Shown: piece by piece, positions 54,360 to 61,522 of the stretch | How the letters are laid out: every line of letters begins with the position of its first letter | How positions within the stretch are numbered: the first letter of the stretch is position 1 | Source of the DNA: Escherichia coli | Lineage (GTDB): Bacteria > Pseudomonadota > Gammaproteobacteria > Enterobacterales > Enterobacteriaceae | Reading direction: 5' to 3' (one strand) | Length of the DNA: 64,000 nucleotides | Assembly: GCF_001677475.2 (NCBI RefSeq) | Contig: NZ_CP015229.1 | Notes under the pieces: model-generated | The model's input: only the letters and a program-made list of their open reading frames with translations | What the model was told of the DNA's origin: nothing | The model's database searches: none | Made by a program: the position numbers and the translations under genes

Positions 54360-54755
54360 ATGTTTAATAGCCTGACGGATGCCAAGGTAAACGCCTTACT
54401 TAAGGACGCAAAACAAAAAGCTGCTAACCCTGGAACGAGTGAAAATGAACGTGCTATGGCCGTTGCAATTTGGGAGTTAGCAGAAGAAGTAAAGCGAAAC
54501 CGCATGCAGTACACTCGGGTTTACCAGCAATTTGATGGTGCAAGCTGGAAAGATATCGAAGAGGCTGAATATTCAGCATGCAAAGAAGAAAAAAAGACTG
54601 TTCGGATTTTGCATGAAGCAGCAACTCCAATCACTGTAGAAATCCCCGATCACAGATATTTCGAGAACGATGATCTACCTGGGGATGTGATTCGAATTAT
54701 TGATGAGATACTTCATGAACAAGGCTTAACTGTTAAAATTACGCATAATAAATGA
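54360..54755 (+). CDS. hypothetical protein, stop overlaps cre start
   Basis: 131 aa; ATGA overlap with cre ATG at 54752. Confidence 0.45.
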   Translation: MFNSLTDAKVNALLKDAKQKAANPGTSENERAMAVAIWELAEEVKRNRMQYTRVYQQFDGASWKDIEEAEYSACKEEKKTVRILHEAATPITVEIPDHRYFENDDLPGDVIRIIDEILHEQGLTVKITHNK

Positions 54756-55800: not shown

Positions 55801-55817
55801 ATTGCTCTAATTCTTTG
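55801..55817. promoter_or_regulatory. C1 operator-like site
   Basis: attgctctaattctttg. Confidence 0.5.
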
Positions 55818-55833
55818 ATATTTATGGTGACAT

Positions 55834-56145
55834 ATGAGAAAGGATTTCAACATCGACGGAAAATATGTAGTGCTGTCTGTAAGCACTAATATTCAGTCGC
55901 CAGCCGTCATTGTCACTGTAAAGCTGAGCGATAGAATGCCTGATATTGACTCAATATCCGTTGCGTTTCCTGTCAAAAGTATGCGTAGTGCTGAACATTT
56001 CGTGATGAATGCCACCGAGGAAGAAGCACGGCGCGGTTTTGCTAAAGTGATGTCTGAGTTTGGCGAACTCTTGGGTAAGGTTAACAATGTCCTTTCAATC
56101 AGTTCAGCAAGGTCCAAAGCGTTAACAGCTTCCATGATGAAATAA
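55834..56145 (+). CDS. cra: hypothetical protein (P1 cra position)
   Basis: 103 aa ORF immediately after cre. Confidence 0.5.
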   Translation: MRKDFNIDGKYVVLSVSTNIQSPAVIVTVKLSDRMPDIDSISVAFPVKSMRSAEHFVMNATEEEARRGFAKVMSEFGELLGKVNNVLSISSARSKALTASMMK

Positions 56146-56277
56146 AAAAAAGCTTGGCAAGGAGCCAGGCTGCACAAAAGAGCGGGTTTGTATTCCGCAT
56201 CCAATCAATCAAGAAGGAGTATAGCACACTGGTACTGAAGTGAAAAAATGTGATTCGCGATAAACAAAATATCTATC

Positions 56278-56294
56278 ATTGCTCTAATTGATTG
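56278..56294. promoter_or_regulatory. C1 operator upstream of ref
   Basis: attgctctaattgattg. Confidence 0.55.
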
Positions 56295-56392
56295 CTATAA
56301 TTGAGCCGCGGTTTTTGTCAACTACGAAGACGAGCCATTACTTAACTCCTTGACATCATAGGCGGCCATTAGGCCGCCTTTTTTTTGACCAT

Positions 56393-56953
56393 ATGAAAAC
56401 AATCGAACAAAAAATTGAACAGTGCCGCAAGTGGCAGAAGGCAGCCAGAGAACGAGCGATCGCTCGGCAACGGGAGAAGTTGGCTGATCCGGTCTGGCGA
56501 GAATCTCAATATCAGAAAATGCGAGATACTATCGACCGCCGTATCGCTAAACAGAAAGAGCGCCCACCAGCCAGCAAAACGCGGAAAAGCGCGGTAAAAA
56601 TAAAATCTCGTGGCTTGAAGGGGAGAACACCAACGGCGGAGGAACGGCGCATCGCCAATGCTCTTGGCGCTCTCCCCTGCATTGCCTGCTATATGCATGG
56701 AGTAATATCTAATGAGGTGTCTCTGCACCATATCGCCGGTCGTACCGCGCCGGGTTGTCATAAAAAGCAATTGCCACTTTGTAGATGGCACCACCAGCAT
56801 GCAGCTCCGGCTGAAGTAAGAGAAAAATACCCCTGGCTGGTCCCTGTTCATGCCGATGGTGTGGTTGGAGGCAAGAAAGAATTCACCTTGCTGAACAAGT
56901 CAGAGATGGAGTTGCTGGCTGACGCCTATGAAATGGCAAACATCATGCACTAA
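56393..56953 (+). CDS. ref: Ref recombination-enhancement HNH endonuclease
   Basis: 186 aa; HNH-like CIACYMHG...HHIAG...CRWHH; position after cre/cra. Confidence 0.85.
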   Translation: MKTIEQKIEQCRKWQKAARERAIARQREKLADPVWRESQYQKMRDTIDRRIAKQKERPPASKTRKSAVKIKSRGLKGRTPTAEERRIANALGALPCIACYMHGVISNEVSLHHIAGRTAPGCHKKQLPLCRWHHQHAAPAEVREKYPWLVPVHADGVVGGKKEFTLLNKSEMELLADAYEMANIMH

Positions 56954-57114
56954 TAAATATATTATTTTTAATCTTAAATGATTGACAACTGACAAGTGAC
57001 TTGAGTCAGAATCATCACACGCCCGGTACGGATGGATCCCTTTTCAAATATTCCATGGACGGCACAGTCTGAGTACCGGGCGCTACCTTCAGTTGTATTG
57101 CTAAGCCGCCGCTG

Positions 57115-57783
57115 GTGGCTTTTCTTTTTGTAGGGGGAGCTATGGATAAGAAAATATGCGTTGTTTCGATGAACGTCGGCAAACCGGCGTCAATGACTGC
57201 TGCATGGATCAACAACGAGCTGATAATGGCTGAGCGGACCAGCTACCCTGAACGCCGCCGCGACATGGAACTCCAGCTGCTGCGCGAATTGCGAGAAAAA
57301 GAGGAAAAGGGTTTTATCGTGCTGGTGGAAGAGGAAAACAGCTTTATTACTGGTCGAGTTGGCCAGCGTGTAAGGTTGCGCGATCCCTTCATGAACGGCA
57401 GGCCGGTACTGATTGAAGCAATGCAGATTTACAAGGAGCTGGAACGCCAGAAAGCGATCAAGTTACCACGCAAGGAGTCCGGCAAGTACATTCTCCATCA
57501 AAGCATCTTCGATTCCGAACACGACAAAAAAGGCGATGAATTTTTCAACATCAACTGGAGCGAAATAACCACAGAGCACGTTCTGACGCTACTATGTTGC
57601 TTTGCAACGGAATACAACAACGTGGTGAGCGCGCACTACATTCAGGCAATGGCTGGTAGGATTAATACGCAGCGTGAGCCCTCGCTGATAGAGCCATTCA
57701 TCAATATTATTAATGCTACTCAACGAATGGGAGAAACACGTGTGCCGCAAGGCTTACTCACAGGTAAATATGATTACCTTTAA
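57115..57783 (+). CDS. hypothetical protein (P1 mat position; start may be internal)
   Basis: 222 aa ORF following ref. Confidence 0.45.
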   Translation: MAFLFVGGAMDKKICVVSMNVGKPASMTAAWINNELIMAERTSYPERRRDMELQLLRELREKEEKGFIVLVEEENSFITGRVGQRVRLRDPFMNGRPVLIEAMQIYKELERQKAIKLPRKESGKYILHQSIFDSEHDKKGDEFFNINWSEITTEHVLTLLCCFATEYNNVVSAHYIQAMAGRINTQREPSLIEPFINIINATQRMGETRVPQGLLTGKYDYL

Positions 57784-58267: not shown

Positions 58268-61200
58268 ATGTCACTTTCTGTTTATAATAATAAAAAAAAT
58301 AGCTCTTCAGGGGGGAACTCTCCTCGCTTGACCCTACTGGCAGCTATAATCGGCGCATTATTTTCAAATGCTTACGCTTCAACAACTGCTATTAAAATTG
58401 ATAATGATGTTCAAGTTAATAAAGATAACCTCGATATTAATACGGGCAGTAATACAGGAAGTAATGGATATGCGATCTCTGTCACAAATTCAGGTGAACT
58501 AACTACCGAAGGTACAGTGACGTTATCTACAGAAGGTGATAAGGCAAACGGAGTTAATATATCCAGTGGGTCTAAAATTAACTCTCAAGGTGGGATTACA
58601 ATAACCACAAAAGGCAAAAACGCCTCTGGCATTTCACTTGATAATAATTCTTCAATGACTATCGCTAACGGTATGTCAATTACAACAAGTGGGATAAACG
58701 CTACAGGGATTAATGTTGACAAATCTTCACTAACTGTTGAACAAGGTGATATTAACACATCTGGTGTAAATGCTAGTGGTGTTTCTATTTTAAATGGAGG
58801 CCAAGCCAGTTTAAATAAAGTTAACATTACCACATCTGGAGATAATGCCAGAGGTATTGTTAGCTCTGGCATAAATAGCAAAATAGTAATTAGCGACTCA
58901 ACCATTACCACTCTGGGGGATAAAAAACCATCACAAGCATGGGGAGCTCGTGGCATATCTGCCGAAAACAACGGTTATGTTTCACTAACAAATACGCAGA
59001 TTAAAACTGATGGAACAGGGGCTTGGGGAGTATCTGCATCGTCAGCTGGCTCAGCTGAATTAGCTGATGTTCATATTTCCACTTCAGGCCAAAATGGCTA
59101 TGGTTTACGTGCAGATGGCAATAACTCTAGTATATCTGTATCTAAAGGACTCCAGGTAACCACTTCTGGCAAACAAGCTCATGCCGTAACTGCCTCTAAT
59201 AATGGGAATATAAATCTTGGAGTAAATGCATCTCTTGAAACATCAGGGACGCAGGCTAATACCATCCATATCACCGGTGGTAATGGTGGTATAATAACGG
59301 GTGATAGTATCTCAATAAAAACAAATGGCACATCAGCCAAAGGTATATATGTTACGGCTTTAAATCCCTCAGACTCAGCACCTGATTCACGCGTAGAGCT
59401 GACGGGAACATCAACAATCGCCACATTAGGTGATCAGTCAATAGGTGTGTGGGGGCATGGTAAAGTAGCTGATATTAGCTTCGAGCAAATAGCTATTAAT
59501 ACAGCCGGTACTGACTCATACGGTATAAATGCACAAAATGAAGCCACTGTTAATGCCCATACAGCCCAGATTATTACTAAGGGGCTAAACTCATATGGAG
59601 CAACAGCAAATTCAGCTGCAAAAATTACACTTGGTTCTGGTTCATCGATTACAACAAGCGGTGATTATGCTCATGGAATATGGGTCAGTGATGACAATAC
59701 AGTTATTAGTGGCAATAATGCATCCATTCATGTATCAGGAAAAGAGGCTGACTCTGTAGTCGCTGCCAATAATGCAAAAGTTGAGCTTACCCAAGAGAAT
59801 GGGGTGATGATTAGCGAAACTAGATATAACTTTAATGCTAATGGTGGTGCTATTTCCGCCACGTTAGATGGCAGCCAAATAAAGAATAACGGCACATTCA
59901 TCTTCTCAACCAGTAATGATGCCGGTGTGGGAGGGAACGTTGATGTTACAGTCAAGAATACTTCCTTTAATGGCGATATTCGCGCTGATAGTAACAGTAT
60001 TGCCAATCTTTCATTAGAAAATTCCAACTGGACTGGAACCGCGTATAATGGTGGCATTGTTAATTTAGCTAAAAACAGCATCTGGAATATGGTTAGCGAT
60101 TCGGATGTTGCTCATCTTAATAATAATGGCTCTATATATTTGGGCAGCGATGCAAAAAACACTTTAACAATTAATGGTGATTATACTGGCGAAAATGGCT
60201 ATATCTACTTTTCAGGCGTTCTTGGTGACGACACATCTCCAATCGATAAGTTGGTTGTAAAAGGAAATACAGAGGGTAAAACCTTTGTTTCCGTAAACAA
60301 CGTTGGTGGTATTGGGGCACAAACACTCAATGGCATCAACATTATCCAGGTTGATGGTCAATCTAACGGTGACTTTGTACAAGTTGGCCGAATTGCGGCT
60401 GGTGCTTATGATTACACTCTTGGGCGGGGGCAAGGCGATAAAAATGGCAACTGGTACCTAACTAGTGGCAAACAACCTGAGGATCCAACTCCGAACCCGG
60501 ACCCGGAGCCAAATCCGACCCCAACACCAGGTGACAATGATCTTCGCCCAGAAGCTGGTAGCTATACGGCAAACATTGCTGCTGCAAATACTATGTTCGT
60601 GACTCGCCTACACGAACGTCAGGGGCAAATGCAGTATACCGATGTGATTACCGGTGAATTGAAAACTACAAGCATGTGGATGCGTCATGAGGGTGGACAC
60701 AATCGCTGGCGCGACGGAAGCAACCAGTTAAAAACACAAAGCAACCGTTATGTTATGCAACTGGGCGGCGATATAGCACAGTGGGGTTGGAATAAAACGG
60801 ATCGCTGGCATCTTGGCTTAATGGCCGGATACGGTAATGACCACAATAATACAGAATCTGTGCGCACAGGATATCGTTCAAAAGGTAGTGTGAATGGTTA
60901 CAGCACTGGGCTGTATGCCACCTGGTATGCCAATGATGAAACACATAACGGGGCTTACCTAGACTCTTGGGCACAGTACAGCTGGTTTGATAACTATGTT
61001 AAAGGTGATGGATTGCAGAGTGAATCCTGGAAATCAAAAGGACTTACTGCATCACTGGAAACTGGTTATACCTGGAAGGCTGGTGAGTTTACGGGCAGCC
61101 AAGGTGGTTTGAATGAGTGGTATGTCCAGCCTCAGGCTCAGGTCATCTGGATGGGTGTTAAAGCGGACGAACATCGCGAAAGCAACGGTACCCGTGTTGA

Positions 61201-61522
61201 AAGCACCGGAGATGGTAATGTCCGTACCCGTCTGGGCGTGAAAACATGGATTAAAAGCCACAGTCGTATAGATGAAGGCAAATCCCGGGAATTCAGCCCA
61301 TTTGTGGAAGTGAACTGGCTGCATAACACCCGTGATTTTGGTACTCGTATGAATGGTGTGACGGTACATCAGGACGGTGCCCGTAATATCGGAGAAATAA
61401 AAACCGGTGTTGAGGGGCAGATAAATTCCAGACTGAACCTGTGGGGGAATGTAGGTGTTCAAGTCGGTGACAAAGGGTATAACGACACATCTGCAATGTT
61501 GGGTGTGAAGTATACCTTCTGA
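58268..61522 (+). CDS. type Va autotransporter (adhesin-like passenger plus C-terminal beta-barrel)
   Basis: 1084 aa; extended signal peptide; repetitive G/N/S/T-rich beta-helix-like passenger; Pro-rich linker PNPDPEPNPTPTPG; C-terminus ends KYTF; AT-rich upstream region. Confidence 0.85.
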   Translation: MSLSVYNNKKNSSSGGNSPRLTLLAAIIGALFSNAYASTTAIKIDNDVQVNKDNLDINTGSNTGSNGYAISVTNSGELTTEGTVTLSTEGDKANGVNISSGSKINSQGGITITTKGKNASGISLDNNSSMTIANGMSITTSGINATGINVDKSSLTVEQGDINTSGVNASGVSILNGGQASLNKVNITTSGDNARGIVSSGINSKIVISDSTITTLGDKKPSQAWGARGISAENNGYVSLTNTQIKTDGTGAWGVSASSAGSAELADVHISTSGQNGYGLRADGNNSSISVSKGLQVTTSGKQAHAVTASNNGNINLGVNASLETSGTQANTIHITGGNGGIITGDSISIKTNGTSAKGIYVTALNPSDSAPDSRVELTGTSTIATLGDQSIGVWGHGKVADISFEQIAINTAGTDSYGINAQNEATVNAHTAQIITKGLNSYGATANSAAKITLGSGSSITTSGDYAHGIWVSDDNTVISGNNASIHVSGKEADSVVAANNAKVELTQENGVMISETRYNFNANGGAISATLDGSQIKNNGTFIFSTSNDAGVGGNVDVTVKNTSFNGDIRADSNSIANLSLENSNWTGTAYNGGIVNLAKNSIWNMVSDSDVAHLNNNGSIYLGSDAKNTLTINGDYTGENGYIYFSGVLGDDTSPIDKLVVKGNTEGKTFVSVNNVGGIGAQTLNGINIIQVDGQSNGDFVQVGRIAAGAYDYTLGRGQGDKNGNWYLTSGKQPEDPTPNPDPEPNPTPTPGDNDLRPEAGSYTANIAAANTMFVTRLHERQGQMQYTDVITGELKTTSMWMRHEGGHNRWRDGSNQLKTQSNRYVMQLGGDIAQWGWNKTDRWHLGLMAGYGNDHNNTESVRTGYRSKGSVNGYSTGLYATWYANDETHNGAYLDSWAQYSWFDNYVKGDGLQSESWKSKGLTASLETGYTWKAGEFTGSQGGLNEWYVQPQAQVIWMGVKADEHRESNGTRVESTGDGNVRTRLGVKTWIKSHSRIDEGKSREFSPFVEVNWLHNTRDFGTRMNGVTVHQDGARNIGEIKTGVEGQINSRLNLWGNVGVQVGDKGYNDTSAMLGVKYTF

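Follow-up and report, generated by a model that had tools for sequence, protein, structure and literature searches.

How is a gene expressed when its start codon is immediately preceded by a hairpin and a T run that look like an intrinsic terminator? The ref gene poses this question in the stretch of 64,000 nucleotides from Escherichia coli contig NZ_CP015229.1 analyzed here (the window), a P1-type plasmid-prophage with 98.5% identity to P1 over 1.5 kb in this region. The gene name given in the original prediction is correct: the reading frame at 56393-56953 (+) encodes a RecA-dependent HNH nuclease of 186 aa (Pfam: PF16786, E = 2.3e-51), which is 99.5% identical to P1 Ref. Read in the direction of transcription, the order is TTGACA (56350-56355), TCAT, the hairpin, eight T residues, GACCAT and the ref ATG at 56393. 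The hairpin and T8 run, said to lie between a C1 operator at 56278 and the ref ATG, are present exactly as described; only the start assigned to the element, 56351, is one base late, as TTGACA begins at 56350. For the comparative part of the analysis, 80 viral contigs encoding close Ref relatives were collected, and 78 P1-type loci were usable.

The hairpin occupies 56360-56379 on the + strand and consists of the 5' arm AGGCGGCC (56360-56367), the loop ATTA (56368-56371) and the 3' arm GGCCGCCT (56372-56379). The stem thus comprises eight base pairs, seven of them G-C, with a loop of 4 nt, and is called as a terminator-like site by a consensus scan; its conserved core has 7 bp (56361-56378, +). 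The T8 run, the putative terminator U-tract, follows at 56379-56386 (+) and ends 6 nt 5' of the ref ATG; its first T pairs with A56360, which leaves seven T unpaired. Both hallmarks of intrinsic terminators are found, i.e. a G-C-rich stem of about 5-14 bp with a short loop, and a U-rich tract directly 3' of the stem on the transcribed strand. RNA folding yields a dG of -17.1 kcal/mol (z = -4.24 relative to 200 dinucleotide shuffles, none of which folded as well), and in the full leader at equilibrium the terminator is formed with a probability of about 1.0 in every variant folded. A scan of all runs of at least six T on both strands of the whole 64-kb window yields 45 sites combining a hairpin with a T run; among these, the ref hairpin ranks second in stability, and its T run is the longest. 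Three sites in the window have a dG of -15 or lower and abut at least seven T, whereas 200 random Markov-1 windows contain 0.03 such sites on average. The hairpin sequence occurs only once in the window, which rules out a repeated or mobile element; a terminator role on the minus strand is ruled out as well, because no T run follows the hairpin there. The ref leader has no Rfam match other than chance-level hits driven by the hairpin (E 0.35-0.77, far under gathering scores), and no terminator feature is annotated at the hairpin site in the GenBank records of P1 or P7.

A point absent from the original prediction is that the C1-controlled promoter of ref, P2ref, lies upstream of the hairpin. 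The operator at 56278 is confirmed by alignment as Oref of the P1 record (ATTGCTCTAATTGATTG, 56278-56294, +), with three mismatches to the consensus; the window contains 15 C1 operator-like sites of this quality, where 0.32 are expected. Oref overlaps P2ref, a promoter predicted in the P1 record and located here at 56273-56301 (+), with the -35 element CTATCA at 56273-56278 and the extended -10 element TGcTATAAT at 56293-56301; the motif TGnTATAAT is found in 75 of the 78 P1-type loci. Transcription from P2ref is expected to start near 56308, and the leader, counted through the last residue of the T run, would then measure about 79 nt. Hence the element (56360-56386 with the T run) is positioned between a predicted promoter with its operator (56273-56301) and the ATG (56393). 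Because P2ref lies upstream and all of its transcripts cross the hairpin, the element would be a leader attenuator of ref and not merely a stop upstream of the gene. We consider it very probable, judging from the sequence, that hairpin and U-tract form an intrinsic (Rho-independent) terminator in the ref 5' leader which acts as an attenuator. An H-NS site upstream of ref, CGATAAA (Ronayne et al. 2016), is unchanged in the window at 56258-56264 (+).

Several other elements of the leader deserve mention. A first leader hairpin is predicted from GUUUUUGU and ACGAAGAC (56311-56331; 56308-56335 with two additional pairs, +), and it is not conserved among divergent leaders. The P1 record predicts a second promoter, P1ref, with the -35 element TTGCCA, a 16-nt spacer and the -10 element CATCAT, which abuts the hairpin; its equivalent in the window is located at 56332-56359 (+), with GAGCCA as -35 and CATCAT (56354-56359) as -10 element. 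The hexamer TTGACA (+) lies inside the motif CTCCYTGAC that is common to the more distant leaders of the JK004 type described below. As a -35 element it was rejected: at 16-18 nt it is followed by GCCGCC and no -10 element, and the promoter scan calls none. In relatives the hexamer is not conserved and reads TTGAAA (L020, L060) or CTGACG.

The original prediction saw in the hairpin a stop for read-through from cra. As far as the sequence goes, the stop stands, since no canonical + strand terminator other than the ref hairpin is present from cre to ref; directly after the c8 stop codon there is a hairpin whose T run lies on the other strand. The gene 5' of the ref regulatory region is not cra, though; it is c8 (103 aa, 55834-56145, +), as named in the P1 record, where cra sits upstream of cre. 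One public record calls the c8 reading frame 'cra'. Directly 5' of cre the window has a reading frame of 131 aa (54360-54755, +) that overlaps the cre start (ATGA); the cra of the P1 record, by contrast, measures 222 nt and leaves a gap of 8 nt to cre. Given a canonical terminator on the + strand, expression of ref would depend on read-through unless a promoter starts inside the hairpin, as had been suggested. A promoter after the hairpin, the other option suggested, is impossible, as there are no more than 6 nt between the T run and the ATG.

For the attenuator we propose the following course of events. When C1 leaves Oref, RNA polymerase would start at P2ref (about 56308) and transcribe the leader of about 79 nt; most complexes would then be released at the U-tract (about 56385-56387), just 5' of the ref start codon. 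The ref mRNA would stem from the read-through fraction only, possibly with a contribution of a weak promoter starting inside the hairpin, and a toxic RecA-dependent nuclease would be held low and late. The same hairpin would halt + strand transcription coming from cre and c8, so that upstream promoters could not bypass the C1 control of ref. It is known that ref is C1-controlled and that its RNA increases 73-fold after C1 inactivation (PMC4713147). Since ref is clearly expressed on induction, termination must be incomplete or a bypass must exist, and we infer its efficiency to be less than full; the increase fits a tightly throttled, leaky stop before a harmful gene. Possible routes of expression are simple partial read-through, the predicted P1ref and an antiterminator. 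Ref prolongs the SOS response and boosts killing by ciprofloxacin, and lysogenisation is cut 40-fold in its presence (PMC4713147); because of these effects, a tight limit on its expression is needed. The leader terminator would represent an extra layer beyond repression by C1 and H-NS and would insulate ref from the constitutively needed cre. A P1vir RNA-seq paper mentions neither ref nor terminators.

Among relatives, the element is strongly conserved. In the P1-type loci, the 5' arm GGCGGCC is present in all 78 and the 3' arm GGCCGCC in 73. The remaining five carry a C->T change at the foot of the 3' arm, the only stem change seen there, which yields G.U pairs in the + strand RNA but A.C mismatches on the - strand. 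The loop reads ATTA (66 loci), ATCA (9) or TAAA (3), and a T run of 7-10 residues, ending 5 or 6 nt before the ATG, is present throughout; the flanks vary far more than the hairpin core. The additional pair A56360-T56379 occurs in 12 of the 78 loci, including the window. A second, more distant set comprises six loci of the JK004 type (L082, L088-L090, L169 and L170), i.e. Cronobacter phage JK004, whose Ref is 65% identical, three IMG/VR contigs and two Salmonella plasmids. Their layout consists of the operator core ATTGCTCTAAT, TATAAT, a leader of 50-60 nt, the hairpin, T8 and the start codon; the stem reads GACGGTC-TTCG-G(A/G)CCGTC, with one U.G pair added in L089. An alignment of ten distinct hairpin variants over the 7-bp core shows standard pairs in 70 of 70 cells, and this signal is gone when the partner columns are slid. 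Between the P1 type and the JK004 type, two stem pairs are changed on both sides (G-C to A-U and C-G to U-A). This pattern points to selection at the RNA level; as there are only two stem types, it may reflect one replacement event as well as stepwise compensation. Whichever way the stem changed, a predicted terminator is kept at the ref leader position.

The hairpin is also linked to ref in its occurrence. The more distant ref homologs of D6, Pantoea, Klebsiella, Citrobacter and Vibrio stand in unrelated contexts and are not preceded by a hairpin; hence, these homologs are uninformative for covariation. One P1-type plasmid (NZ_CP032890.1, positions 1040-1100; L172) has kept cre-c8 and lost both ref and the hairpin; its homology stops about 15 nt short of the expected hairpin site. 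In another locus without ref (NZ_CP058881.1, positions 1030-1130; L171), the -10 element of P2ref is deleted, the stem contains a mismatch (GGCGACC) and the T run is reduced to T6. In this latter locus, an antirepressor gene with a KilAC domain takes the place of ref and converges on the decayed hairpin.

Other explanations of the element have to be weighed against these data. The hairpin could chiefly terminate the cre-c8 unit, its effect on ref's own promoter being incidental. It is the only canonical + strand terminator from cre to ref, and an insulation of ref makes sense because cre must be expressed in lysogens. We regard this reading as possible but doubtful: P2ref with Oref is situated downstream of c8 but upstream of the hairpin, which all transcripts from the ref promoter must therefore cross, and the distance of the hairpin to the c8 stop is 215 nt, compared with 6 nt to the ref start. 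Moreover, the JK004-type phages have other upstream genes and yet the same order of promoter, leader, hairpin and ref, and the plasmid that retains cre-c8 without ref is also without the hairpin. A further scenario supposes that ref is transcribed mainly from the predicted P1ref. Its start, expected 5-9 nt past 56359, would fall at 56364-56368 in the arm or loop; because an RNA that starts inside the 5' arm cannot form the hairpin, productive transcripts would not be limited by it. In favor of this scenario stand the prediction of P1ref in the P1 record and the presence of TTGCC in 65 of the 78 P1-type loci; the latter is equally explained by RNA pairing with the 5' arm. As a prediction, however, P1ref matches at 9/12 positions in P1 and 7/12 in the window (GAGCCA), it was not picked up by the promoter scan, and it has no counterpart in the JK004-type leaders, in which the hairpin stands directly after CTGAC. 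Nor is it under an operator, whereas ref is C1-controlled. We judge a main role of P1ref to be quite unlikely.

The element could also act mainly after transcription, with the U-tract as an S1-type translation enhancer and the hairpin as a 5' stabiliser. For the E. coli rnd (RNase D) leader, a hairpin followed by U8 is reported to be needed for translation; as in ref, this terminator-like element stands between the promoter and a weakly initiating start, but it is reported to act in translation, unlike the role that we propose for ref. In the P1 type, ref has no Shine-Dalgarno sequence (UUUUUUUUGACCAUAUG), and the U-tract ends 5-6 nt before the AUG in every locus. Such a function would leave the selection for a G-C-rich stem and the compensatory changes unexplained, and hairpin and T8 are nevertheless retained in the JK004-type leaders, in which the U-tract is followed by GGGA or GGAG and the spacer is longer. 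Furthermore, hairpin and U-tract fully fit the rules for terminators, and a translational role could coexist with termination. As the main function it seems to us very improbable; the P1-type U-tract may double as a translation enhancer. After the U-tract, the JK004-type loci have GGG, GGGA or GGAG (region 575-597 in L169 and L170), and some of them use GTG starts. Finally, the inverted repeat might be a DNA site for a dimeric protein. The dyad GGCGGCC-N4-GGCCGCC is perfect, and the compensatory changes preserve the symmetry of the DNA as well. The one-sided changes, however, are all compatible with G.U pairing on the + strand and break the DNA symmetry, the invariant T run would have no explanation, the site is unique in the window, and none is annotated in the P1 and P7 records. 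A DNA site is therefore hardly credible.

As to how polymerase would pass the attenuator that we favor, an antiterminator route to ref expression can be hypothesized from folding models: as long as the 3' arm has not been transcribed, a predicted pairing of 7 bp in each type would join the 5' arm to an upstream segment, i.e. GUUGCCA:UGGCGGC in the P1 type and ACUGUCA:UGACGGU in the JK004 type. Both strands are invariant within each type, hence no covariation is found for the antiterminator; two other upstream pairings, GCCGC and UGUCAA:UUGACA, are broken in L020 and L060. The estimated barriers for refolding from antiterminator to terminator amount to 6.1 kcal/mol in the P1 type, 8.9 kcal/mol in the JK004 type and 2.6 kcal/mol in the window. 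In P1, the best candidate antiterminator has the stretch of the P1ref -35 element as its upstream strand, which is damaged in the window. It is unlikely that the ref leader is a regulated switch in which the upstream strand pairs with the 5' arm and is stabilised by a phage or host signal in lytic growth. If it were one, natural alleles would tune the dosage of Ref, and the allele of the window would be set for very little Ref. As regards a sensor for attenuation, the leaders of relatives share no conserved ORF, as start codons vary and indels shift the frames, and have no Rfam match; a trans-acting factor is conceivable. A leader peptide ending in Pro-TGA by the stem (..ACT CCT TGA in P1, ATG..CCT CCC TGA in JK004) was rejected. 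The JK004 ATG is ATA in L088 and absent in L089; the only in-frame start in P1, a TTG, overlaps the -10 element and lies upstream of the expected transcription start; the window has lost 1 nt, so that its frame runs into a TAA at 56344-56346; and no Shine-Dalgarno sequence is present.

The element does not constitute a new kind of system. Windle, Laufer and Hays (J Bacteriol 1988;170:4881) report "attenuator-antiterminator control" of ref in the title of their paper, and the hairpin is classed here as the known element proposed for P1 in 1988 because of this title and because it is the sole terminator-like element between promoter and start. That the 'attenuator' of the title denotes this very hairpin we infer from the wording of the title, the identity of the sequences and the lack of any other terminator-like site from promoter to start. 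By coordinate conversion, the 1988 sequence (M23246, P1 1808-2063) appears to end at the last base of the 3' arm. Our comparison supports the 1988 proposal with two compensatory pairs, the joint loss of hairpin and ref, and the same layout in relatives from Cronobacter and Salmonella. The ref leader of P1 has the same order as the window (cre, c8, Oref/P2ref, hairpin, ref) and is about 99% identical; in P1 (AF234172), the core GGCGGCC-ATTA-GGCCGCC and the T8 run are identical and at the homologous position. It differs from the window by a T at the equivalent of 56360, by TTGCCA and by one A fewer before the ATG. The JK004-type leaders (MZ188976; NZ_CP146848 and NZ_CP077703; L088-L090) share with the window a C1-operator-like sequence (ATTGCTCTAAT), TATAAT, a G-C-rich hairpin of 7 bp with a tetraloop, and T8. 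In contrast to the window, their stem GACGGTC/GACCGTC encloses a UUCG loop, CTGAC stands immediately before the hairpin, the spacer to the start measures 11-13 nt and contains GGG, GGGA or GGAG, and the upstream genes are different. With attenuators of the trp, his and pyrBI type, the ref leader has in common an intrinsic terminator between promoter and first codon and a 5' arm that may pair alternatively with an upstream segment; unlike them, it has no conserved leader peptide, no covariation of an antiterminator and no Rfam family.

Compared with P1, the window possesses a ref leader allele of its own. The change T->A at 56360, common to 12 of the 78 loci, adds the eighth pair to the stem. 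A 1-nt deletion together with a substitution converts TTGCCA of P1 to GAGCCA, which is found in no other of the 78 loci, and an extra A stands between the T run and the ATG, as in 18 of the 78 loci. All three changes would tend toward stronger termination or weaker bypass. What is new, as predicted from these differences, is an allele with a stronger stem in which the predicted bypass promoter and the best partner strand of the antiterminator are both damaged. Natural alleles thus differ at positions expected to set the read-through, which is useful for engineering P1 or for using Ref.

Some observations concern the neighborhood of this control region. Between c8 and Oref, the minus strand contains a candidate for an unannotated small RNA (56146-56246) with a predicted transcript of about 65 nt (56211 to 56146). 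A promoter-like sequence TTTTCA-17-(TGc)TATACT (56246-56218) precedes the hairpin GCCTGGC-TCCTT-GCCAAGC (56172-56154), whose T8 run (56153-56146) adjoins the c8 stop codon. Its -10 element is invariant in 27 of 28 P1-type sequence variants, the exception being L081 with TGTACTATACT. The stem is invariant in all 28 variants but the window, while the loop varies and the T run measures 6-9; P1 has a perfect hairpin (z -3.0), and that of the window contains one mismatch. The P1 record has no annotation for this candidate, and it has no Rfam match. This candidate and the ref hairpin would flank the control region of ref as two outward-protecting terminators. On the other side of c8, a perfect C1-operator core ATTGCTCTAAT is located at 55801-55817 (+), 17 nt upstream of the c8 ATG. 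At the corresponding position of the reference P1 stands ATTGCTATAAT, readable as an extended -10 element TGcTATAAT. The operator core is found upstream of c8 in 34 of 37 related loci; hence c8 may be C1-controlled in most relatives, unlike what the P1 record suggests.

Downstream of ref, the region that corresponds to the mat start of the P1 record (57032-57142 in the window) contains another hairpin on the + strand, AAGCCGCC-GCT-GGTGGCTT, followed by the T-rich run TTCTTTTT (57103-57127). Because the window has T5 here and P1 has T6, the P1-type Mat start at ATG 57032 meets a stop at 57131; the long mat ORF continues in another frame (GTG 57115, ATG 57142). The distance between the two mat ATGs is 109-112 nt among relatives, and all three frames occur. 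The 5' stretch of mat may therefore be a leader with its own attenuator, or mat may be frameshifted here. After mat follows an autotransporter of 1084 aa (58268-61522, +) with a beta-domain (Pfam: PF03797) and an autochaperone domain (Pfam: PF18883), where P1 has res/mod; this arrangement is found in one of 72,556 plasmid records (CP056895.1, 91% identity).
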